Source: a virus
Lineage: Duplodnaviria > Caudoviricetes
Virus record (IMG/VR): IMGVR_UViG_3300030330_005139
Length of the DNA stretch: 64,000 nt
Direction: 5' to 3' (one strand)
Shown here: in pieces, positions 52,762 through 62,769 of the stretch
How the letters are laid out: every line of letters begins with the position of its first letter
How positions within the stretch are numbered: the stretch's first letter is position 1
Made by a program: the position numbers and the translations under genes
Notes under the pieces: model-generated
Databases searched by the model: none
What the model saw: only the letters and a program-made list of their open reading frames with translations
Told to the model about the DNA's origin: nothing

Positions 52762-52823
52762 TGTGTTATAATGTTAGTAACCACCAAAGCTCCCCTTTGG
52801 TGTAATCACTAATCTAAAACGAC

Positions 52824-53015
52824 ATGTCGAGCACCCTTCTGGCAATTCAATCTCTTCGTAAAGTTTGGCGTGAGCAAGACTTCAAATTGAGTTCTGATCA
52901 ACAAAAACGTCTCGACGAGTTGACAGACCTTCGCCGCCGTGAAGTGAGTGAATTCTATGAACAGGGTCGCGTTTGGTCTGGTCCTTCTGAGGCTAGCAAA
53001 CCCGTCGAAGAGTGA
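52824..53015 (+). CDS. Hypothetical protein
   Basis: First ORF after repeat 1. Confidence 0.65.
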   Translation: MSSTLLAIQSLRKVWREQDFKLSSDQQKRLDELTDLRRREVSEFYEQGRVWSGPSEASKPVEE

Positions 53016-53021
53016 CAAACT

Positions 53022-53047
53022 GAGGGGGTTTCGCCCCCTCTTTTTTT
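53022..53047 (+). terminator. Intrinsic terminator
   Basis: GAGGGGG-tttcg-CCCCCTC followed by T7. Confidence 0.85.
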
Positions 53048-53060
53048 ATCTTAACTTATC

Positions 53061-53354
53061 ATGACAATGACTGAATCTAATTACAGAGTTCTGAAGTTTG
53101 GTAATCATCCCACCGAGGGTTTGTGGAACAGCAGAACATTCACTCGTTCGCTTGTTGAGGCAGAAAGTCTTTTTCATGAAGCAGAGGTTGAGCGTGCCAC
53201 TGGTGGAGATCTCATCGGTTCTGTTCTCATTAAGGTTGATGACGATTCCTGGCATGTCCTTGACAAGTTTGGCACAGAGGGTTACAGTATTGGTCTGTCT
53301 CAAGTTGGAGTGTTTGAGGTCTCAAATTCCGACACTGTTATGGATCTATCATGA
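53061..53354 (+). CDS. Hypothetical protein
   Basis: 97-aa ORF. Confidence 0.6.
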   Translation: MTMTESNYRVLKFGNHPTEGLWNSRTFTRSLVEAESLFHEAEVERATGGDLIGSVLIKVDDDSWHVLDKFGTEGYSIGLSQVGVFEVSNSDTVMDLS

Positions 53355-53623
53355 AATTTGTTGACTTTACGGCAGAAGAATATACCTTCGTTACCAAATT
53401 ATTGGAAGAGACGAAGGCATCTACAAACAAGGATCTTAAAGTTCTGAATGGTGCAATCTTGGCTCTCAAAATTGCATCGGCTGACGACCATTACCGTCGT
53501 TATGTGAAGATTGCTCCTCATGGTGAAAGACTCACTAGGGAACAATTCTTTGAGGAACTTTATCATATAACTGAACAAGATTTGAAGTCAAGAGATGATA
53601 ACGGCGGTTTCGGTTATTGTTAG
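53351..53623 (+). CDS. Hypothetical protein
   Basis: ATGA overlap; its TAG stop lies inside repeat 2. Confidence 0.6.
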   Translation: MKFVDFTAEEYTFVTKLLEETKASTNKDLKVLNGAILALKIASADDHYRRYVKIAPHGERLTREQFFEELYHITEQDLKSRDDNGGFGYC

Positions 53624-53647
53624 TAACCTCTAAAGCTCCCCTTTAGT

Positions 53648-54553
53648 ATGACTAAACCTCTCACCCACATAGCCCACCCAGAAGACCTCATCCTCTCCGG
53701 TGAGCTCTGGGTGGTTGATGCCCTAACTAATCAAGCCAATCACATCTCTGTCAAGATTGATGGAGCACCTGCGATTGTCTGGGGAACTCACCCACAAACT
53801 GGTAAGTTCTTTGTTTCAACCAAGTCTGCTTTCAACAAGAAAAAGGACAAAATCTGTTACACCATTGATGATGTCAGAAAGCACTTCAAAGGTGTTTATG
53901 AACTCCAAGACATTCTGATCACCTGTCTTATGAACTTGCCCGTAACTGAGGGCATCTTCCAAGGTGATTTCATTGGTTTTGGTGGTGAAGGTCAGAAAGC
54001 TTTCACTCCTAACACTCTCACCTACACCTTCTCTGAGGCACCACATCAGACCATCATTGTCGCCCCTCATACTTATTATGAGGTGGATTCTGACACTCAC
54101 ATGAGTCAAGCAGTCCCACATCCTCTGAAGGGTGATCTCATCTCGACCGACGATTGTTTGTTCATTCAACCTTTCGTTGATCGTTTCCAACGTGATCACC
54201 GTCCCTTCAAGATTAACAAGTCTCGTTGGAACTTTCTCTCTCAGAAAGACGCACAAAGTGCAATCATCTCCATCAACGCTTTGATCCGTTCTGGTCAAGA
54301 ACTTGATGACCAAACTCTCATCGAGATCATCGGTGATGCTGACCTGGTTAACCTCTATCAACTGGTCATTTCTCTAAAAGAGATGTTTATGGATGATCTC
54401 ATCGTTTATGGTTCTCCGACCTGTTCTGTGGGGTCTGAGAGGGTTCTGGCAGAGGGTTTCGTTATTTACTCCGACCACGGTGACATTCCTCTGAAACTTG
54501 TCAATCGTCATGAGTTCGCATTCAACAACATGAACTATGGTAAATTCTCCTGA
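53648..54553 (+). CDS. Ligase-like covalent nucleotidyltransferase-fold protein (DUF6267-like)
   Basis: H..HPED, VKIDGAP, FQGD, EGFVI, LKLVNR. Confidence 0.6.
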   Translation: MTKPLTHIAHPEDLILSGELWVVDALTNQANHISVKIDGAPAIVWGTHPQTGKFFVSTKSAFNKKKDKICYTIDDVRKHFKGVYELQDILITCLMNLPVTEGIFQGDFIGFGGEGQKAFTPNTLTYTFSEAPHQTIIVAPHTYYEVDSDTHMSQAVPHPLKGDLISTDDCLFIQPFVDRFQRDHRPFKINKSRWNFLSQKDAQSAIISINALIRSGQELDDQTLIEIIGDADLVNLYQLVISLKEMFMDDLIVYGSPTCSVGSERVLAEGFVIYSDHGDIPLKLVNRHEFAFNNMNYGKFS

Positions 54554-54605
54554 TTATTGTTAGTAACCTCCAAAGATCACCTTTAGTGTAACCGCCCCCC
54601 AACAC

Positions 54606-54803
54606 ATGAACGAACAGAACTCCAATCAACTGCGAGACAAAAGCATTGACACAATGGGTCAGACTCTTTTTGACCGTTTCGCTGAACTTCTGGACGACGA
54701 TCAAGAAACCGCTAAGGCACTCCATTCTGAATGGGTTGTTGATGGTCAGGATCCCGAAGAAGGCGATTACGAGTTCATCTTTGTTGAAAAGATCTCCTCA
54801 TGA
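54606..54803 (+). CDS. Hypothetical protein
   Basis: After repeat 3. Confidence 0.6.
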   Translation: MNEQNSNQLRDKSIDTMGQTLFDRFAELLDDDQETAKALHSEWVVDGQDPEEGDYEFIFVEKISS

Positions 54804-55006
54804 AAAATCTCTCAGATCGCACAATTTCTAACCTGGCAACTGCAGTCCATGAGTCTGTCGTCAAACAGATCTACAGTGATCCTAAATTCCTGACAGACTT
54901 GTCTGAAGCCCTTGGCAGATCCCTCACCGAGCTTTATGGTGAGATGGACGAACAACTAAGGTCAGATATTGGAATGTTAATTTTCGACAGGATGACAATC
55001 AAATGA
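54800..55006 (+). CDS. Hypothetical protein
   Basis: ATGA overlap; resembles 58691-58909 (IYSDPKF vs IYTDDRF). Confidence 0.6.
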   Translation: MKNLSDRTISNLATAVHESVVKQIYSDPKFLTDLSEALGRSLTELYGEMDEQLRSDIGMLIFDRMTIK

Positions 55007-55215
55007 GCAAATGGATTGTTCAGAAACCCTCCATTCTTGACCCAAAACAAATCTCTCACGGGTTTGTCATCAATGATGGAGAATATGCAGCAGTCCCAAT
55101 GAGTAACAGCGACGCACAACTGATGGTCATCCATAACGGATCACCACTCAAAGTTTGTCGTAACGAATCATCAGCTTTCAACTTTATCAAGAAACACCAA
55201 AAACGAAGAAAATGA
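55003..55215 (+). CDS. Hypothetical protein
   Basis: YAAVP...IHNG...CRN. Confidence 0.65.
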   Translation: MSKWIVQKPSILDPKQISHGFVINDGEYAAVPMSNSDAQLMVIHNGSPLKVCRNESSAFNFIKKHQKRRK

Positions 55216-55424
55216 AACAAACATTCAGATTCTTTTCATCCATCATCATCGGTTCTGTGGCACTTGCTGGTGTCTCTTTCATCTTTGATCAACAACGTAA
55301 CCAACAAGATTTTGTTGGTGGGCGAGTTGTTGGTTATGTTGAAGTTTCTCCTGGTGTTTGTGAATCCACCTTCATGGGAGAAGACAATGAGTTCTACATT
55401 ATTCAAGAGGAGTGCAACAAATGA
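55212..55424 (+). CDS. Hypothetical membrane-anchored protein
   Basis: TM N-terminus; VGYVEVSPGVC. Confidence 0.6.
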   Translation: MKQTFRFFSSIIIGSVALAGVSFIFDQQRNQQDFVGGRVVGYVEVSPGVCESTFMGEDNEFYIIQEECNK

Positions 55425-55606
55425 TCAACACTGATCTTCTCGCAGTCATCGAAAGTCTGGAAGATGGTGTGAATGTCTCATATGAGGCACTTGATGATCC
55501 TGATCGGGGTTATACTTACGCCACTAGATATTCACGAGTCACGATGACTCACGCCATTGAATGTCTCAAACTCATCATTGAACAAAACCAAAAAGAAAAT
55601 GATTGA
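55421..55606 (+). CDS. Hypothetical protein
   Basis: ATGA overlap. Confidence 0.6.
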   Translation: MINTDLLAVIESLEDGVNVSYEALDDPDRGYTYATRYSRVTMTHAIECLKLIIEQNQKEND

Positions 55607-55769
55607 CACTGATCTTCTCATCGCTTACGAAGAAGGAACCATTGAAAAAGATCAGTTCCTTGAATTGTTCCAACAAATTTATGACTCTAGGGCATATACC
55701 TGGCTTCAAGGTCATTATGGTCGCACACTTTCTGACCTGGCACAAGCTGGTCTGATAAATCTCAAGTGA
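55599..55769 (+). CDS. Hypothetical protein
   Basis: AYEEG...WLQGHYGR. Confidence 0.65.
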   Translation: MIDTDLLIAYEEGTIEKDQFLELFQQIYDSRAYTWLQGHYGRTLSDLAQAGLINLK

Positions 55770-55820
55770 TTATTGTTAGTTACCCCTAAAGCTCCCCTTT
55801 AGTGTAACCACTGATTTACT

Positions 55821-56009
55821 ATGACACTCACTGAAAGAAACCAAAAACTCTTCGAACTTCGTCAGAAACTCAACAAAGCCCGTGCAGAAGTTGCATGGAT
55901 TGAGCAAGAGATCTGGCTCACCAAAGATCAATATGATCGTGAGGGTCTTGACCTCTTCAAAGAAATGGGTCTCGATAGTCCCATGTTCTACGAAATTTAC
56001 GGAGGTTGA
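55821..56009 (+). CDS. Hypothetical protein
   Basis: After repeat 4. Confidence 0.6.
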   Translation: MTLTERNQKLFELRQKLNKARAEVAWIEQEIWLTKDQYDREGLDLFKEMGLDSPMFYEIYGG

Positions 56010-56013
56010 TGAC

Positions 56014-56181
56014 ATGATCACATCTAAGACACAAATGCTCAAGATCATGAAAACCTGTGCTCATGCAGATACTCTCACCCGAGAAGAAAAGTTTCTTGTC
56101 TTCTGTAGAGTATGTGACAACATGCTCAAAGAGGGCAGAATGACCAAGGCAACACATAAACGGTTCACTCAGATTTGGTGA
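56014..56181 (+). CDS. Hypothetical protein
   Basis: MITSKTQ...DNMLKEGRMT. Confidence 0.6.
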   Translation: MITSKTQMLKIMKTCAHADTLTREEKFLVFCRVCDNMLKEGRMTKATHKRFTQIW

Positions 56182-56235
56182 CATTATTGTTAGTTACCCC
56201 TAAAGCTCCCCTTTAGTGTAACCACGTTTTCCATT

Positions 56236-56583
56236 ATGACTTTCGTAGCTCCACAACACAAATCAGAATATCTCACTGAGTGTCTCATTGAGGTTCTCAA
56301 CAACCGTGAGAAAGTGAACGCTCTTGAGTCTTCACGAACCGTTTACACTAACTTCGAGTATGAAGTTGGTCGTAAGTACATCAAAGTCTGGTCTTATCTG
56401 GTCGATGGTGATGAACGTCTCCGTGGTCGTTCCTGTTACATGTTCGTGGACAAAGAGACTGGAGCGGTTTACAAACCAGCCTCTTATAAGGCACCCGCTA
56501 AGGGCATTCGGTTCCAGATTGATCAGTTGGCTGATAACCCTGACATCTGTGATCCTTATGGGAGTTTCCTTTACATCCGATGA
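56236..56583 (+). CDS. Conserved phage hypothetical protein
   Basis: GRKYIKV, FVDKETG.VYKPASYKAPAKG. Confidence 0.7.
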   Translation: MTFVAPQHKSEYLTECLIEVLNNREKVNALESSRTVYTNFEYEVGRKYIKVWSYLVDGDERLRGRSCYMFVDKETGAVYKPASYKAPAKGIRFQIDQLADNPDICDPYGSFLYIR

Positions 56584-56587
56584 GAAT

Positions 56588-56615
56588 GAGAGAGGTTTAC
56601 AACCTCTCTTTTTTT
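56588..56615 (+). terminator. Intrinsic terminator
   Basis: AGAGAGGTT-tac-AACCTCTCT then T-run. Confidence 0.8.
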
Positions 56616-56713
56616 ATGTTAAAATCCTTTTGTCTCAATGAAGGCGCTAAGAATCTAGAGTACATTGTTAGTAACCTCTAAAGCTCTCCTGTAGTGTAAC
56701 TTACTTGGTTTTT

Positions 56714-56908
56714 ATGACCAGTTCTGATCTTCGTCCTAATGTTGTGATGGAAATGGATGATTATTCATCCACCTTTGAACTCCTAACCCTTGACTTTAAG
56801 GCACGAGTAAAGATTCACAACTATGAAGTAAAGAAACTCGGTGAGGACATCAGAGCACTTTTCAACTTCGTTTCTGATAAGATGTTCTTCAAACTCATCG
56901 ACATGTGA
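56714..56908 (+). CDS. Hypothetical protein
   Basis: After repeat 6. Confidence 0.55.
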   Translation: MTSSDLRPNVVMEMDDYSSTFELLTLDFKARVKIHNYEVKKLGEDIRALFNFVSDKMFFKLIDM

Positions 56909-56913
56909 TGAAC

Positions 56914-56939
56914 GAGAGAGGAGTAATCCTCTCTTTTTT
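56914..56939 (+). terminator. Intrinsic terminator
   Basis: AGAGAGGA-gtaa-TCCTCTCT then T-run, abutting repeat 7. Confidence 0.8.
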
Positions 56940-56990
56940 ATTGTTAGTTACCTCCAAAGCTCACCCTTAGTGTAATCACTCATTCAAACC

Positions 56991-57170
56991 ATGATTCACT
57001 ATCTCGTTAAGTGTCCCTCTGATCCTTATGAGAACACCGATTGTTTAAGTGATCTCGACAGGGCTTGGGATCTCTGTCTCTCACTCGCTGAAGAGTATGG
57101 ATACGCCGAAGTTGGTTACTATAACATCCAAGGACATTACCAACTCGTCGGTGATTATTGTTTCAACTGA
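56991..57170 (+). CDS. Hypothetical protein (59 aa)
   Basis: Translated by hand: MIHYLVKCPSDPYEN...AWDLC...YGYAEV. Confidence 0.6.
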   Translation: MIHYLVKCPSDPYENTDCLSDLDRAWDLCLSLAEEYGYAEVGYYNIQGHYQLVGDYCFN

Positions 57171-57172
57171 TT

Positions 57173-57325
57173 ATGAATAATAATACCACTAACTCTGTCA
57201 TTTCTCTTGTTACCTATCTTCAGGAACTGGAAGAGAACAACAAAATCAATGAGAGTGAGTACAAAAGAGCGTTGAAACTTGTAAACAATATTGTTAGTAA
57301 CCTCCAAAACTCTCCTTTAGTATAA
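57173..57325 (+). CDS. Hypothetical protein (50 aa), reads through repeat 8
   Basis: Translated by hand; ends VSNLQNSPLV. Confidence 0.4.
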   Translation: MNNNTTNSVISLVTYLQELEENNKINESEYKRALKLVNNIVSNLQNSPLV

Positions 57326-57339
57326 CCCACTCAATCATT

Positions 57340-57474
57340 ATGACACCTGAAGAATTTGAAGAAAATGTCAGAATCATCACGGGAGATCCTAACTGGTCCC
57401 TCCCTGATGATGAAGACAATAATGTTAGTAACCCCCAAAGCTCTCCTTTAGTACAACCCACTCAACCATTATGA
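57340..57474 (+). CDS. Hypothetical protein (44 aa), reads through repeat 9
   Basis: Translated by hand: MTPEEFEENVR...VSNPQSSPLVQPTQPL. Confidence 0.4.
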   Translation: MTPEEFEENVRIITGDPNWSLPDDEDNNVSNPQSSPLVQPTQPL

Positions 57475-57659
57475 AAACTAAGAATCCTCGTCTTGTCTTT
57501 GGTGATGATGAATTCACCTTCTTCCGTGTTAAACTCCTTGAAGAGGTAAAAGCTCAGAAGAGGTTGTTCAACCCAACTCAAGCAAAGAAAGAACAGAAGA
57601 AGGCAGACGATTGTCTTCGTTATCTGATGAACCATCAACCACACCAACTGGAATTCTGA
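57471..57659 (+). CDS. Hypothetical protein
   Basis: After repeat 9. Confidence 0.6.
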   Translation: MKTKNPRLVFGDDEFTFFRVKLLEEVKAQKRLFNPTQAKKEQKKADDCLRYLMNHQPHQLEF

Positions 57660-57808
57660 TGAACACTTTACAAGTCGAACAATTACAGGAAGACATCATC
57701 ACAATCATGGAATCTCATTTTCCTAATGAGAACGTAGATGAGGTGATTGAACTTCTATGTGACGCTGTTAACCAAAACATTTCACCCACACTTTCTGATC
57801 ATGACTAA
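57659..57808 (+). CDS. Hypothetical protein
   Basis: EQLQEDII...LCDAV. Confidence 0.55.
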   Translation: MNTLQVEQLQEDIITIMESHFPNENVDEVIELLCDAVNQNISPTLSDHD

Positions 57809-58091
57809 AACTGAAGCACTCGCCATCTTCAAGCGAGCAGGATACACTTTCATTGGATACAAGGACACTGGCTGGGGTTGTAAGCAGTACTACTTCACTC
57901 ACCCCAACATTCAAGGAACTGAGGTTTCTTATGATCTGCCACTGTTGAGAAAGAGAGCAAGACATCTCGACATCAAGATGTGGCATGATGAGTATAAGGA
58001 ACAGCTGAGACAGGGCATTCAGGAGACTCTCTTCACTGACACGGAGATTGAGTGTAATTACTTCATCGAGAACCCTGTTGTAGTCGCCTAA
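57801..58091 (+). CDS. Hypothetical protein
   Basis: MTKTEAL...; stop abuts repeat 10. Confidence 0.6.
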   Translation: MTKTEALAIFKRAGYTFIGYKDTGWGCKQYYFTHPNIQGTEVSYDLPLLRKRARHLDIKMWHDEYKEQLRQGIQETLFTDTEIECNYFIENPVVVA

Positions 58092-58148
58092 TATTGTTAG
58101 TTACCTCCAAAGCTCCCCTTTAGTGTAACCACTCATTCAACTCAAATC

Positions 58149-58631
58149 ATGGCAACTCGTGGACGAATTGGAATCAAACTTTCTGATGGTTCCATCCTCT
58201 CAGCTTATCATCACTGGGACTCCTATCCTCAGTGGCTCGGTGTTAACCTGGTGAAGAACTTCAATTCTTTTCAGAAAGCAGCTGAACTCATCGATGGTGG
58301 TGACATGTCAGCATGTTACACTACTCATACTTGGGAGTCTGAACCTCTCAAACGAGAGATCATTCAACCTGATGGATCTTCTAAGTTCGAGTACATCAAA
58401 GACAATGAAGGCAACTGGGTTTACACCAAAGTGAAGCCAGAAGCTGGTCCTCAGTATTACTCTGAGCGTGGTGAGGATTGTCCTCCCCGTCTCGATCCTG
58501 ACCTTTTCGAGTATCTCTCCAAAGGCGAAGAATTCGCATACGTTTTTGAAGGTGGAACCTGGATATGTTATGATCTACATGAGTTCGATAGTGAGGAACC
58601 TGAAATTGTTGAAATCCCTCAGGTTCTCTGA
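58149..58631 (+). CDS. Conserved phage hypothetical protein
   Basis: MATRGRIG...YHHWDSYP...EEFAYVF. Confidence 0.7.
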   Translation: MATRGRIGIKLSDGSILSAYHHWDSYPQWLGVNLVKNFNSFQKAAELIDGGDMSACYTTHTWESEPLKREIIQPDGSSKFEYIKDNEGNWVYTKVKPEAGPQYYSERGEDCPPRLDPDLFEYLSKGEEFAYVFEGGTWICYDLHEFDSEEPEIVEIPQVL

Positions 58632-58690
58632 TTATTGTTTGTAACCTCTAAAGATCCCCTTTAGTGTAATCAACCATTTTCTCTAAACTG

Positions 58691-58909
58691 ATGACCAACC
58701 CTTCACAAACCCATAAAGCTCTTCAACTCCTTCGTGATGGGTTCATGATTGAGTTGACTGAAAAGATCTACACCGATGATCGATTCACAAATCTCATGAT
58801 GGATCTCACCTCTGAGTTTGTTGAGCAAAACATTCCCGTTGTTGATGAAGATCTCCAAGTGGATCTGGCACTGATGATGATGGAATCGATCTCGCTTCGT
58901 TCTTATTGA
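58691..58909 (+). CDS. Hypothetical protein
   Basis: After repeat 11. Confidence 0.6.
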   Translation: MTNPSQTHKALQLLRDGFMIELTEKIYTDDRFTNLMMDLTSEFVEQNIPVVDEDLQVDLALMMMESISLRSY

Positions 58910-58916
58910 TTTAAGT

Positions 58917-59435
58917 GTGACCGTGAAAACCAACCAAGAATTTATTTCCCTTGTAGAAGAGAGAACTCAATCAATTCTTTCCACCAAAGGTGATGTTGGG
59001 CGTCAGGCAATCGCAACGACTCGCGGTCAACAGGTGGAGAAAGCAGCAGCAATCTTATTATCGGATCACCCCAACGTTGAGAGTGTGGTTGAACAAGTCT
59101 TTGAAGAGGAAGTAGACGAGTTCTCCAACATTGACCTGGTTGTTACCACTAAAGACGGTCGAACAGTTTATGTACCCTGTGCTCGTGATCTTTGGTTGGG
59201 GACATCACAACAAGATCGCCTTCAGATTGTATGGGCAAAGTTTAAGGGTGGACTGTTTAATGACCATGATGTCTGTTATCTCTGCCTGGATGATATTAAC
59301 ACAATCTTGAACAAAGAGCACCGCAAGAGTGCCAGACGGGGACCAAAGATCAAAAACTGCTGTCGTGTTCTATTTGAAGCTGGAGTGATAATGAACTTCG
59401 AACACCTTTGGAATCACCTTCTCACCACTGATTGA
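58917..59435 (+). CDS. Hypothetical protein, possible degenerate restriction-endonuclease fold
   Basis: G..VE helix and IDLVV strand, no canonical ExK. Confidence 0.4.
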   Translation: MTVKTNQEFISLVEERTQSILSTKGDVGRQAIATTRGQQVEKAAAILLSDHPNVESVVEQVFEEEVDEFSNIDLVVTTKDGRTVYVPCARDLWLGTSQQDRLQIVWAKFKGGLFNDHDVCYLCLDDINTILNKEHRKSARRGPKIKNCCRVLFEAGVIMNFEHLWNHLLTTD

Positions 59436-59481
59436 TGGTGATTATTGTTTGTAACCTCCAAAGCTCCCCCTTAGTGTAACC

Positions 59482-59688
59482 ATGTTTTTCATTATGGCAT
59501 TTCTCGACTGGATTCAAGAAGCAATCGGTTCTAAAGTTGAAGACGAATTTGGCATGGTTCATGTCATCACAGGTGGCAAACTTGTGGCTGACTCTCCCAT
59601 GTGGCCGATGATTCAACTGACTGATGACATGGGTGTTCTACGATATGTCACTCTTGATCGTTTCATGGAACTCGTTTCTGTTGGGTGA
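59482..59688 (+). CDS. Hypothetical protein
   Basis: Between repeats 12 and 13. Confidence 0.6.
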   Translation: MFFIMAFLDWIQEAIGSKVEDEFGMVHVITGGKLVADSPMWPMIQLTDDMGVLRYVTLDRFMELVSVG

Positions 59689-59803
59689 TATTGTTTGTTA
59701 CCTCCAAAGCTCTTCATTAGTGTAACCAGGACTTCTTCTCTAAGGTTGTTTCTCTGAAAAGACTTCTTCCTTAGAGTTGTTTCTCCTCTTAAACAAAAAC
59801 ATC

Positions 59804-60010
59804 ATGGTCTATCTCATCTCTCAATCCAACGGTTGCACATACACTCTCGACCCCGATCATTCCCGAGTTCTGTATTACGCACCTTTGTTGTCCGATGGTA
59901 CTTGTGAAACCGCATTCTCAGCTTACGCTGAAGTCGAATGGGACGAATTGGATGAAGATGTTCTTAACGAAGCAGATCGTTGTTATCACCTTCTGATGTC
60001 TGATCGTTGA
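59804..60010 (+). CDS. Hypothetical protein
   Basis: Between repeats 13 and 14. Confidence 0.6.
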   Translation: MVYLISQSNGCTYTLDPDHSRVLYYAPLLSDGTCETAFSAYAEVEWDELDEDVLNEADRCYHLLMSDR

Positions 60011-60064
60011 GGATTATTGTTTGTTACCTCCAAAGCTCTTCATTAGTGTAACCACATCAACCTC

Positions 60065-60208
60065 ATGAAACTCGTTCTTTTCGTCATCGTTGGAATTCTG
60101 TTCTGGACGAGTGATGACGCACGAAACTTTACCGCTAATCAACTCAATAACGCAGCTGAAATCGTCCGACCTGATACTAACAAGAACTCCTTCACAATCA
60201 AATTCTGA
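60065..60208 (+). CDS. Small membrane protein (47 aa)
   Basis: Translated by hand: MKLVLFVIVGILFWTSDDARNFTA; fills repeat 14-15 interval. Confidence 0.6.
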   Translation: MKLVLFVIVGILFWTSDDARNFTANQLNNAAEIVRPDTNKNSFTIKF

Positions 60209-60264
60209 TTATTGTTTGTTACCACCAAAGCTCCCCTTTAGTGTAACCACTCATTCAACCAATC

Positions 60265-60501
60265 ATGACTAACACCACTTACAACGGCTGGGCCAATTAC
60301 GAGACCTGGAATGTCGCTCTCTGGCTTGGAAATGACGAATCGATGTATCAAATGGCTCGGATGTTCCGCCATCATGGTTATAAGTCACTTTCACACATGT
60401 TGGAAGAAACTTTCGGTTCTGTGACTCCCGATGGTGTATATTGGAAGCACTCTGATCTTGACATTGAAAGTCTCAATGAAATGTTAGAGGATGATTTCTG
60501 A
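60265..60501 (+). CDS. Conserved phage hypothetical protein
   Basis: YNGWANYETWNVALWL. Confidence 0.7.
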   Translation: MTNTTYNGWANYETWNVALWLGNDESMYQMARMFRHHGYKSLSHMLEETFGSVTPDGVYWKHSDLDIESLNEMLEDDF

Positions 60502-60503
60502 TT

Positions 60504-60791
60504 ATGTCATCAATTTATCAACTCCGCGGATCCACTTTGGATCCTTTTCTTTCTGCTAAACTTGCACCTTTCATTCACGCACATCGTCCACATGATAAAC
60601 CTCCCGCTAAAGAAGATTTGGATAAAGGTGATTACATCCCCAAAGAATCGCCATTGTCTAAAGATAACATCATCGACACTTATAAGGCAATTAAGTATCA
60701 CCAAGACCTTGAATGGTTAAAGAGAAAGAGAGAGTATAATAGTAAGTGGAAAGGATACAGATCTCATTTTGCGTTAGGTATCTCCGAATGA
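60504..60791 (+). CDS. Hypothetical protein
   Basis: 95-aa ORF. Confidence 0.5.
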   Translation: MSSIYQLRGSTLDPFLSAKLAPFIHAHRPHDKPPAKEDLDKGDYIPKESPLSKDNIIDTYKAIKYHQDLEWLKRKREYNSKWKGYRSHFALGISE

Positions 60792-61249
60792 AAGAATTTG
60801 ATTATGAACTTGATTACAAACGTCTTGACTTTACAGATGAAGAAACTCGTCAACTTTATCGTATTGGAAGGGGAGAACAAGGGGTTTTATTGGTACGCCC
60901 TTACACAGACGATATTTGTGCTCATTGGAAATTTAAAACCCCTCGTTTAGCATCATTATCATCACAAAAGATTCTAAAGATGTATGAAGATTATAAGGAG
61001 AATAAGGACTTTATTGGTATGGATATGTGTCGTAAGTTTTTAGAGATGGGTTTCACAAGAGCAAGAAGATATGCCAATCATAAGGATGGAAAGAAGTATA
61101 ATTCTCAGGGGGAGGTGTTACCTCAGGAGAAGGATTGGAGAACATCACCTAAGGCACAATCTGCTGTCATTTTTAAGAAGATAAGGGACCAAGTTGCTTA
61201 TGATCCTGTTTATAAGGAGATGAGAAGGTTATGGAGGGATAATGAGTAA
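60788..61249 (+). CDS. DUF4385-like protein
   Basis: YRIGRGEQGVL..PY, GMDMCRKFLEMGFTRARRYANHK. Confidence 0.75.
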   Translation: MKEFDYELDYKRLDFTDEETRQLYRIGRGEQGVLLVRPYTDDICAHWKFKTPRLASLSSQKILKMYEDYKENKDFIGMDMCRKFLEMGFTRARRYANHKDGKKYNSQGEVLPQEKDWRTSPKAQSAVIFKKIRDQVAYDPVYKEMRRLWRDNE

Positions 61250-61530
61250 ATGGTCCTAAAAAAAGGTCATAAATAACACTTTTTTATTAAATAAATGGTT
61301 TTTTAAATGTGTATGAGTGTTTTATTGTTTTCCACAAGTAATGTTCAATTCTGTGGAAATCGTGTGGAATAGTGTGATAAACTGTGGAAAAGTAACAGAA
61401 TAAGAGAGAGAATTATGGTCATCTTTTATCGTCCTAAATGTCTCCTGCCGTTGTGACTTATGTGTCTGGAAATGTGCCAGGTCTTGTGATCTTATTGTCA
61501 GTTTATGTCACCTGGCGTTGTGATCTTGGC
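61250..61530. other. Candidate replication origin or DnaA-binding region
   Basis: AT-rich tract, four TTTTCCACA-like boxes, three TTGTGA(T)CTT repeats. Confidence 0.45.
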
Positions 61531-61534
61531 GAGC

Positions 61535-61563
61535 ATTCTAACAGAAGGACTCAGAAATGTCAA
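61535..61563 (-). promoter_or_regulatory. Sigma70-type promoter firing leftward
   Basis: Minus strand TTGACA-17-TAGAAT with TG extension. Confidence 0.7.
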
Positions 61564-61694
61564 CCCCCCTCCGAGACACTCCCACCCCCAGATTGCAATT
61601 CCTTATGTATGACTTTCGCAACACACTTAACACAGTGGAGATATACTTGTTATAATACTTTTGTCCTCATAAAGGCACTGAGACTCAGCAGCAT

Positions 61695-62243
61695 ATGAAT
61701 ATACTTACCAAGACACTTTTAGGCACTCTGAGTCTACTCAGCACCATCACTGCCACTGTACTCTCAGGAGAACAGATTGGTAAGTATCACTTCATGACTG
61801 GTGAAGACTTTGGAGAACATGAAGCACTTGCCACACAACTGATTGATACACTGAACCAGATGAATGTGCCTGTGTTGGATGGTACTAAGAATGAACTCTC
61901 ACAGTGTACATCAAAGACGAGTAATGTTCTGGGGTACTACTCAGCAAAGCATGATGTGATGGTGATTTGTACTAAGGATGTTCCAGATTGGTTGAGGTTT
62001 GAGACATTGGTGCATGAGACAGTTCATGTCATTCAAGACGCCAGAGATGGGTTGGAGAATGACACATTAGGGCAACCTGGTAGGAGTTACATTTCTACCC
62101 TATATGGAGATCTGGCTAAGAAGAAGCGCCGCCTAATCCGTGAGTCTTATCCACAGTCTCAGTGGAATGTTGAGGTGGAGGCATTCTACTTTGAGACGAA
62201 ACCTCAGGTGGTGTTGAATGAACTGAAGACGTGGGCATTCTGA
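61695..62243 (+). CDS. Secreted HEXXH metallopeptidase-like protein
   Basis: Signal/TM segment; LVHETVHVIQD...EVEA. Confidence 0.7.
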   Translation: MNILTKTLLGTLSLLSTITATVLSGEQIGKYHFMTGEDFGEHEALATQLIDTLNQMNVPVLDGTKNELSQCTSKTSNVLGYYSAKHDVMVICTKDVPDWLRFETLVHETVHVIQDARDGLENDTLGQPGRSYISTLYGDLAKKKRRLIRESYPQSQWNVEVEAFYFETKPQVVLNELKTWAF

Positions 62244-62282
62244 TGGTGTTATTGTTAGTAACCTCGAAACCTCTTCTTTAGT

Positions 62283-62519
62283 ATGAACAACACTTCTACC
62301 ATCACTTTCCGTCAAGCACTTGTCATTCTTGAAGAACACTTTGACTCAACCTATCGTGGCATCAAAAGTGTTCGTGAAATGTGTTCAGATTTGACTGACG
62401 CGATGTATTGGGACAAGGAAGATCCCAACACAATCTATCATCAATTCGAGACTAAATTTGGTCCGAATCGTATTGTCAAAGACGATCAAATCATCAAACT
62501 TGCTCTACACTACGTTTGA
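62283..62519 (+). CDS. Hypothetical protein
   Basis: ATG embedded in the end of repeat 16. Confidence 0.6.
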   Translation: MNNTSTITFRQALVILEEHFDSTYRGIKSVREMCSDLTDAMYWDKEDPNTIYHQFETKFGPNRIVKDDQIIKLALHYV

Positions 62520-62527
62520 CCCATTGA

Positions 62528-62556
62528 TTGACAACTAAGGAAGAAACAGTTATTAT
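62528..62556 (+). promoter_or_regulatory. Sigma70-type promoter
   Basis: TTGACA-17-TATTAT. Confidence 0.75.
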
Positions 62557-62561
62557 ACATA

Positions 62562-62709
62562 TGTGAGACCAAATCCCTAAGGTCTATAAACTTAGAGGGA
62601 CACATAGAGAGTGGTTACTTTATGTGAGCTGTAAAGATTGGTGGTTCTTTCTTTATAGTCTAGTGGTTACAAAAAACAAGGGCTGGGGGTGGTTCCCCTG
62701 GTCCTTTTT
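62562..62709 (+). ncRNA. Candidate ~150-nt multi-hairpin small RNA with repeated GUGGUU
   Basis: Promoter upstream, four hairpins, terminator 62678-62709; GTGGTT at 62611, 62641, 62663, 62689. Confidence 0.65.
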
Positions 62710-62769
62710 ATTGCCTGGTTGTTATCACTGAAGTGGTGGTTATTATGTGACACAAAGTAACACTGAGAT

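Follow-up and report, generated by a model that had tools for sequence, protein, structure and literature searches.

A repeated, probable gene-start signal and the shuffling of small genes in a clade of marine T4-like cyanophages

We analyzed a 64,000-nt stretch of viral DNA (IMG/VR record IMGVR_UViG_3300030330_005139; hereafter the window, at its full length), in which 16 copies of a short repeated element punctuate a block of small genes. The element is real and is widespread among related marine phages. We read it as a lineage-specific, promoter-type signal at gene starts whose copies double as seams for homologous recombination, and we place the probability of this reading at roughly 0.65. 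The evidence supports the view that the genes behind the element are exchanged as cassettes, by homologous recombination within the element itself. An earlier note, made from the letters of the window, had described a 35-nt palindromic hairpin that would be both an expression or processing signal and a recombination site; parts of that proposal stand and others do not.

The element and its array

The window is part of the genome of a T4-like cyanomyovirus. Genes for the baseplate, tail lysozyme and tail fibres occupy 18-44 kb, an auxiliary gene of the 2OG-Fe(II) oxygenase type follows this structural block, and the small-gene block with the element array comes next. Nucleotide matches of the window in the phage collection were to Prochlorococcus and Synechococcus myoviruses only. 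The genes of the array encode proteins that belong to DUF families or to no family at all.

Repeat finding across the 64 kb located exactly 16 copies of the element, all on the + strand and all confined to 52771-62290, at spacings of 131-2040 nt. A 19-nt pattern for the left half matches the window 18 times (0.42 matches expected), and two of these matches, at 59136 (+) and 62658 (-), are chance partial ones. A profile built from related copies recovers exactly the same 16 (E <= 2.4e-10) and no other site in the 64 kb at E <= 10. The number, common orientation and spacing reported in the earlier note are thus confirmed. In the window the consensus reads TGAtTA-TTGTTWGTWACC-NCYAAAG-CTCCC-CTTTAG-TGTAACCAC, followed by a G-poor stretch of 10-25 nt and then by ATG. 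The proposed length of 35 nt is too short, as the element covers ~43 nt, from -5 to +38 (signed positions here and below are counted from the start of a copy), and the term palindromic overstates its symmetry.

Relatives and a sister motif

An exact search with the left half identified 110 viral and more than 120 metagenome contigs, many of which carry 3-16 co-oriented copies. The family set used below comprises 574 distinct copies from ~200 related marine phage contigs. About 10% of the metagenome left-half matches are unrelated coding sequence without the right half, which dilutes the family statistics but does not alter them. One relative, G002 (IMG/VR 3300037991_007379), is 92-96% identical to the window over the array and has 15 copies. 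In two others, G003 (125 kb) and G004 (83 kb), the copies lie in a single ~10-kb cluster each, in one orientation. The record nearest to the window (G001) contains no copy of the element.

A sister motif, GAATTACTCACCTCSAAA-N-GTCCNCTATAGTGTAACCAC, is found in the cultured Synechococcus phages S-B05, S-B43 and RN05-S. It equals the window element in length, register and right half (CTATAGTGTAACCAC), shares the left core TTA-N-T-N-ACCTC-N-AAA, and is likewise clustered and placed ~48 nt before start codons. The two differ at positions 0-2, 6 and 8 (TTGTTAGTAACC in the window lineage, GAATTACTCACC in S-B05), and the sister motif lacks any palindrome. Where annotation was examined, copies lie directly 5' of annotated genes and in the same orientation. 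Of the 14 sister-motif copies in S-B05, 12 form one cluster and two lie elsewhere.

Two stretches of S-B05 (MK799832.1) were delimited, at 31.6-40.4 kb (L253) and 156.0-157.0 kb (L256). Away from the cluster, one S-B05 copy stands before an 882-nt gene (156085-156966) and the other before a helicase gene.

Neither half of the motif rises above control level in Syn9, S-PM2, S-CRM01, P-SSM4 or Bellamy, and the homologous small-gene region of Bellamy holds no comparable repeat. In the searchable literature we found no publication that describes the window motif or its S-B05 version.

Conservation as linear sequence

Across the 574 copies the consensus is ATTA-TTGTTAGTAACCTCYAAAG-tgyCC-CTATAGTRTAACCAC. 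Conservation amounts to 1.5-1.9 bits per position in both halves and holds with copies chosen by the opposite half. Because the left half is equally conserved when copies are chosen by the right half (1.6-1.9 bits per position), we conclude that ~43 nt are under constraint.

The pairing that would form a hairpin is not conserved in this way. By reading of the sequences, the full 6-bp core stem is present in 5 of the 16 window copies. Thirteen window copies were folded, with internal hairpin energies of 0 to -10.6 kcal/mol; five fold better than their shuffled versions (z <= -2.3) and eight do not. Most of the family has A or G in place of the T by which the window lineage completes the CTAAAG/CTTTAG palindrome. 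Of the 574 copies, 13% form the central pair and 21 form all six inner pairs. Column statistics over the same set give, at each proposed pair, a paired fraction equal to the shuffled expectation. A pair count in 143 aligned copies agrees (63.9% paired versus 63.7% shuffled; covariation score 0.058 versus 0.054). Changes at positions 14, 18 and 26 are uncompensated, and Rfam yielded no family matching the element or its surroundings.

The hairpin is therefore a peculiarity of one lineage and not a selected feature, and the core hairpin described in the earlier note pairs, across the family, at the shuffled level. Its compensatory form in copy 1 (CACCAAAG/CTTTGGTG) is a real sequence, but it is an isolated case with no covariation in the family. 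Lacking a structural constraint across the family, an attC-like or processing-hairpin reading loses its basis; we rejected that reading on the combined evidence of folding, column statistics and pair count.

Cassette shuffling at the element

Gene-family maps were made for 86 non-redundant arrays. The same families (DUF6267, helicase, DUF7717 and others) recur in differing order among arrays, in units bounded by the element. Within arrays, the same upstream neighbour is kept in 18.8% of locus comparisons at element junctions versus 45.3% of those at element-free junctions (bootstrap interval of the difference, 0.195-0.336). We also counted clean indels, defined as cases in which the left flank of one copy and the right flank of a later copy match the flanks of one single copy in another locus. 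There are 69 such cassette indels between two copies of the element, as compared with 618 colinear junctions. Applied to element-free gene starts, the test yielded 21 versus 774, the 21 coming mostly from one tandem paralogue family. One-cassette gains and losses are thus ~4 times commoner at elements than at element-free gene starts.

Individual breakpoints fall within the element. The cassettes 56665-56940 and 58635-59444 are missing in contig L111, whose single copy is a chimera: it agrees with window copy 6 as far as about +35 and with copy 7 beyond that, from about +36. Thirty-two triplets showed a single, consistent switch; their crossover intervals all lie inside about -5..+41 and are spread along the element (examples are -6..+14, +1..+26, +18..+34 and +26..+39). 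Crossovers scattered in this manner over ~45 bp of shared sequence argue for homologous recombination and not for a site-specific enzyme. As the earlier note had observed for the window, no recombinase family was found among the open reading frames (ORFs) of the array and its flanks there. Its suggestion of a recombination site is upheld insofar as breakpoints fall in the element, and fails as regards a site-specific or attC mechanism, given spread crossovers and an unconserved stem. It had also pictured an ordinary early promoter as one with fixed cassette order among relatives, no covariation and a simple transcription start. Of these features only the lack of covariation was found, and cassette order is clearly not fixed.

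We propose that the ~40 bp of near-identical sequence per copy would allow copies to serve as seams for general homologous recombination. A crossover between two copies, in one genome or between co-infecting relatives, would delete, insert or move a cassette and leave one hybrid copy behind.

Direct comparison of the window with G002 shows differences at the element and away from it. Homology starts at 52762, 9 nt before copy 1; the copy at 57291 is present in the window and not in G002; and several short indels lie in the leaders just past copies. Further indels fall within genes or between tandem paralogues. The stretch 55427-55604, for example, is an extra paralogue unit relative to G002, an indel between 23-nt direct repeats inside genes and not at an element.

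The tandem paralogues at 55003-55769 encode proteins of ~65-70 aa and recur with a 178-nt period. Elsewhere in the array, an AT-rich non-coding stretch (61249-61530), which holds the one ATAAATA of the array (61269), differs from G002 by indels of 78, 34 and 13 nt.

Placement at gene starts and the promoter reading

The element is always co-oriented with the downstream gene. Preceding ORFs stop 2-12 nt before the element or within it. Window copies end 0-25 nt before a start codon. In 15 of the 16 window copies the next ORF of 25 codons or more starts 31-56 nt past the beginning of the element; at the exception, copy 13, the ATG-started ORF of at least 25 codons begins at +113. The placement given in the earlier note, within a few nucleotides of the previous stop and shortly before the next ATG, is accurate, with the addition that stops also occur inside the element.

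Most of the 574 copies have an ATG at +45..+56, with a peak at +49. In 115 of the 574 (26 protein families), the ORF opens with an ATG at +31 that overlaps the TAGTRT box. This is a spurious in-frame extension in some families; it is the genuine start for the DUF6267 family, including the window gene 53648-54553. Read from the consensus, the element has stops in all three forward frames (TAG at +4, TAA at +14 or +32, and TAG at +27), so an upstream ORF that recombination places before it will be closed in any frame. These stops are in use in some upstream genes, such as that at 53351-53623. The region 3' of the element is G-poor and A/C-rich.

Several features fit a promoter-type placement. 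Twenty-seven of ~540 copies, from 13 gene families and including window copy 7, lie 7-29 nt past a strong intrinsic terminator. Copies that follow a terminator less often have the ATG at +31 (1 of 27 versus 111 of 513), which favours a start site downstream of +31, though weakly, the comparison being phylogenetically clustered. The first copy of the S-B05 array stands in an intergenic region between divergent genes and has no gene upstream that runs in its direction. The late-promoter-like ATAAATA (the T4-type core) occurs 11 times in the preceding 52 kb, among structural and auxiliary metabolic genes, and once in the array (61269). Gene placement and orientation, the terminators, the divergent S-B05 copy and the scarcity of late-promoter motifs, taken together, make a class-specific promoter the most economical reading and promoter function probable. 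The expression half of the earlier expression/processing proposal is accordingly a plausible one, and the processing hairpin falls away.

In our model the carriers would be a Kyanoviridae-like clade of marine T4-like cyanophages, and the signal would be ~43 bp of double-stranded DNA that is read as sequence and not as a hairpin. In the hyperplastic early/accessory region it would stand before every small gene or group of genes, and it would probably define one temporal transcription class. There are two candidates for its -10 box. One is TAGTRT at +27..+32, which places the centre of a conserved box ~30 bp before the implied start. The other is TAWTGT at -2..+3, in which case the remainder of the element would be a conserved 5' leader. 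The general form TAnnnT is found in register -2..+3 in 73% of copies, in +25..+30 in 54% and in +27..+32 in 75%.

A number of observations weigh against the reading of the element as a promoter and recombination seam. A sigma-70 consensus scan placed none of the 16 copies among its 22 promoter-like sites and detected no TTGACA-like -35 at proper spacing, in line with the earlier remark that a canonical -35 is lacking. TAnnnT is kept in register +25, +27 or both in 86.9% of copies versus 85.4% by chance, and some terminator-preceded copies have TAGTGA, with no T at the last -10 position. The genes that open at +31 (115 of 574) misfit the simplest promoter model. A start site downstream of +32 cannot serve them; their transcription would come from read-through, and recombination, not use, would maintain the element at these sites. 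On the cassette side, the pairwise rearrangement counts are not phylogenetically independent, and selection for intact promoter-gene units could partly explain the higher rate of rearrangement at elements.

A canonical sigma-70 promoter was considered and rejected. High-scoring TTGACA-N17-TATAAT sites are few in the window, and three of them, at 61.6-62.8 kb, lie outside the copies. The resemblance of the element to T3/T7 promoter cores prompted a search for PF00940 (T7-like single-subunit polymerase), which gave no match in S-B05, S-B43, RN05-S, G003 or G004; the control genomes gave no match either. Sigma70_r2 gave one sub-threshold match, in G004.

In T4, MotA-dependent middle promoters carry a MotA box in place of the -35 (Miller et al. 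2003). The likeness of the element to these is one of geometry only, and holds if TAGTRT at +27..+32 is the -10, which puts the left box ~30 bp upstream of the implied start; the element has no TGCTT box of the MotA kind. We also entertain, as a tentative and rather unlikely extension, a new promoter class that unmodified host sigma-A polymerase does not read, with a phage-specific reader (virion-delivered or immediate-early) that recognizes the ~16-bp left box near -30. Cyanomyoviruses have neither motA nor asiA (PMC5780444). If the extension is true, these phages, which lack both genes, would have a functional counterpart of the sigma appropriation by MotA/AsiA in T4. The left box would be private to each lineage (TTGTTAGTAACC in the window, GAATTACTCACC in S-B05) and would co-evolve with its reader, and the regulon of the window lineage might also be tuned by a multi-loop small RNA (62563-62715) antisense to GTAACCAC.

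Alternative readings

The strongest alternative, which we judge improbable, acts at the RNA level. Positions +4..+37 would be transcribed as a 5' leader or as an intercistronic segment of polycistronic early mRNAs. This segment would influence translation initiation, mRNA processing or stability, or else be targeted by a phage small RNA. In the leader version, transcription would start near +10 from the -10-like TAWTGT at -2..+3, and this would explain both the start codons at +31 and the conservation through +37. It fits with this version that TAnnnT is so frequent at -2..+3 (73% of copies), that A at -1 is nearly invariant and that the G-poor, A/C-rich sequence past the element resembles an unstructured leader. 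Genuine ATGs at +31 in many copies also put at least +1..+30 within those mRNAs. However, the element has no conserved secondary structure and no Rfam match, and its distance to the ATG varies by at least 12 nt, unlike a precise translation signal. Copies right after strong terminators still need a promoter somewhere in the element, and it is after terminators that the ATG at +31 is depleted.

For the small-RNA form of this alternative there is a candidate partner, an RNA of ~150 nt at 62563-62715 (fold z = -3.66) in which GTGGTT(AC), antisense to the GTAACCAC box at +31..+38, occurs five times; the RNA could pair with leaders that bear GUAACCAC. Against it, the GTGGTT cluster is present only in the closest relatives of the window and in none of the S-B05-type isolates or G003/G004, and the exact GTAACCAC box is at +31..+38 in only 6 of the 16 window copies.

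The locus itself (62528-62745) consists of a ~150-nt non-coding stretch flanked by a consensus-type promoter (TTGACA-17-TATTAT, 62528) and a strong terminator (62678-62706). The stretch holds 5 of the 26 GTGGTT hexamers of the window, two of them as GTGGTTAC, the exact antisense of GTAACCAC, and it is conserved in G002 and L149 only.

We give very little credence to an integron-like or HUH-type site-specific recombination site that acts as a single-stranded DNA hairpin. The array is cassette-like, the window lineage has a partial palindrome, and copy 1 is a fully paired 8-bp variant, all of which recall such systems. Integron attC sites, though, have imperfect inverted repeats that fold into a conserved bulged hairpin, a fixed crossover, and a tyrosine-recombinase integrase with attI, and none of these was found for the element, the integrase being sought among the ORFs of the window array and its flanks. 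Pairing in the stem is not kept up across the family, some two thirds of the window copies fold no better than shuffles, the crossover intervals extend over ~45 nt instead of marking one fixed position, and no recombinase or nuclease family occurs among the array genes. The very active general recombination of T4-type phages suffices to account for the exchanges (Arbiol 2010, PMC2839356).

A transcription terminator or attenuator between genes, suggested by the position right past stop codons and by the hairpin in some copies, is highly improbable, since those hairpins are weak (0 to -10.6 kcal/mol), A/T-rich and without a T run, and genuine G+C-rich, T-run terminators occur separately in the same region and upstream of the element in 27 copies.

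Comparison with known systems

Promoter-early stem-loops (PeSLs) have been described in the T4-type phages RB49/phi1, T4/PST and KVP40/nt-1 (Arbiol 2010, PMC2839356; Comeau 2014, PMC4122927). Like the element, they are repeated, co-oriented motifs in hyperplastic regions, directly before small ORFans of T4-like myoviruses. In both, indel and replacement breakpoints lie in the motif, and homologous recombination is proposed with no dedicated recombinase. The parallel with PeSL cassettes drawn in the earlier note is borne out to this extent, as breakpoints of gene gain, loss and reshuffling fall inside the element.

The two differ in their parts. PeSLs have near-consensus sigma-70 -35 and -10 boxes (type TTGACA-N17-TATAAT), whereas the element has no sigma-70 consensus. 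The adjacent stem-loop of PeSLs is stable and has been shown to terminate transcription; in the element the palindrome is weak and unconserved, and ~43 nt of non-canonical sequence are conserved instead. The terminator-then-promoter order of PeSLs is found in a minority of element copies (27 of ~540). Promoter activity and mini-circles have been demonstrated experimentally for PeSLs, whereas the evidence given here for the element comes from sequence. S-PM2 is without dense PeSLs (Puxty 2015, PMC4503421).

A de novo motif search of Syn9 returned the late promoter only, and the excess of CTAAAG there is coding. Doron et al. (2016, ISME J 10:1437) reportedly found in Syn9 and P-TIM40 a novel regulatory element that controls transcription of early genes, is not of T4 type, is conserved among T4-like cyanophages and is abundant in cyanomyovirus genomes and metagenomes. 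By that account, it has the host group, genome region and gene type of the element in the window. If the two are related, the window motif would be a divergent lineage version.

Other features of the array

The copies and the intrinsic terminators of the array are listed in Table 1. Two of the terminators have common flanks (TGA..stem..TTTTTTTATNTTAA); with these, 53013-53054 and 56581-56622 are 74% identical over 42 nt and may be a second, smaller repeated regulatory module. Between copy 13 and its following ORF, 59730-59785 contains 25-nt direct repeats (GACTTCTTCTCTAAGGTTGTTTCTC, 84% identity) 31 nt apart.

The DUF6267 gene is headed by the element every time, at ~45 loci. In the window its 301-aa product (53648-54553) carries a conserved THxxHPED box near the N terminus and the sequence ..SVKIDGAPAIV.., whose KIDG motif recalls the KxDG lysine-nucleotidyl motif found in ligases and capping enzymes.

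Table 1. Element copies and intrinsic terminators in the array (window coordinates)
Feature	Coordinates	Strand	Remarks
Copy 1	52771..52809	+	Variant CACCAAAG..CTTTGGTG; following ORF from 52824
Copy 2	53617..53655	+	TAG stop of preceding gene inside copy; DUF6267 gene from +31 (53648)
Copy 3	54557..54595	+	Following ORF from 54606
Copy 4	55773..55811	+	Following ORF from 55821
Copy 5	56187..56225	+	DUF7717 gene from 56236
Copy 6	56665..56703	+	Head of 276-nt cassette 56665-56940, missing in relative L111
Copy 7	56941..56979	+	Immediately 3' of intrinsic terminator 56914-56935
Copy 8	57291..57329	+	Copy plus ~120 nt upstream missing in relative G002
Copy 9	57422..57460	+	131 nt past copy 8; 87% identity to copy 8 over 69 nt with flanks
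Copy 10	58094..58132	+	Following ORF from 58149
Copy 11	58635..58673	+	Head of 810-nt cassette 58635-59444, missing in L111
Copy 12	59445..59483	+	51-nt indel in G002 immediately 3' of copy
Copy 13	59691..59729	+	Loop/right-arm variant CTCTTCATTAG
Copy 14	60017..60055	+	Variant CTCTTCATTAG, as copy 13
Copy 15	60212..60250	+	DUF7249 gene from 60265
Copy 16	62252..62290	+	Most divergent copy; 78-aa ORF from +31 (62283)
Intrinsic terminator	53022..53048	+	8-bp G+C-rich stem and T run; in first cassette group, distinct from element
Intrinsic terminator	56588..56616	+	3' of DUF7717 gene
Intrinsic terminator	56914..56940	+	Abuts copy 7; terminator-then-element order, PeSL-like

Significance

Marine T4-like cyanophages rank with the most abundant ocean viruses, and much of their potential to adapt to hosts lies in their small accessory genes. 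The ~200 environmental contigs considered here provide sequence-level evidence that one widespread clade of these phages shuffles small genes as cassettes, and that the seam of the shuffling is a 43-nt signal unlike a host promoter. The PeSL principle is thereby extended from enterobacterial and vibrio T4-type phages to cyanophages, and the element offers a sharp, searchable marker for the accessory region of the clade.

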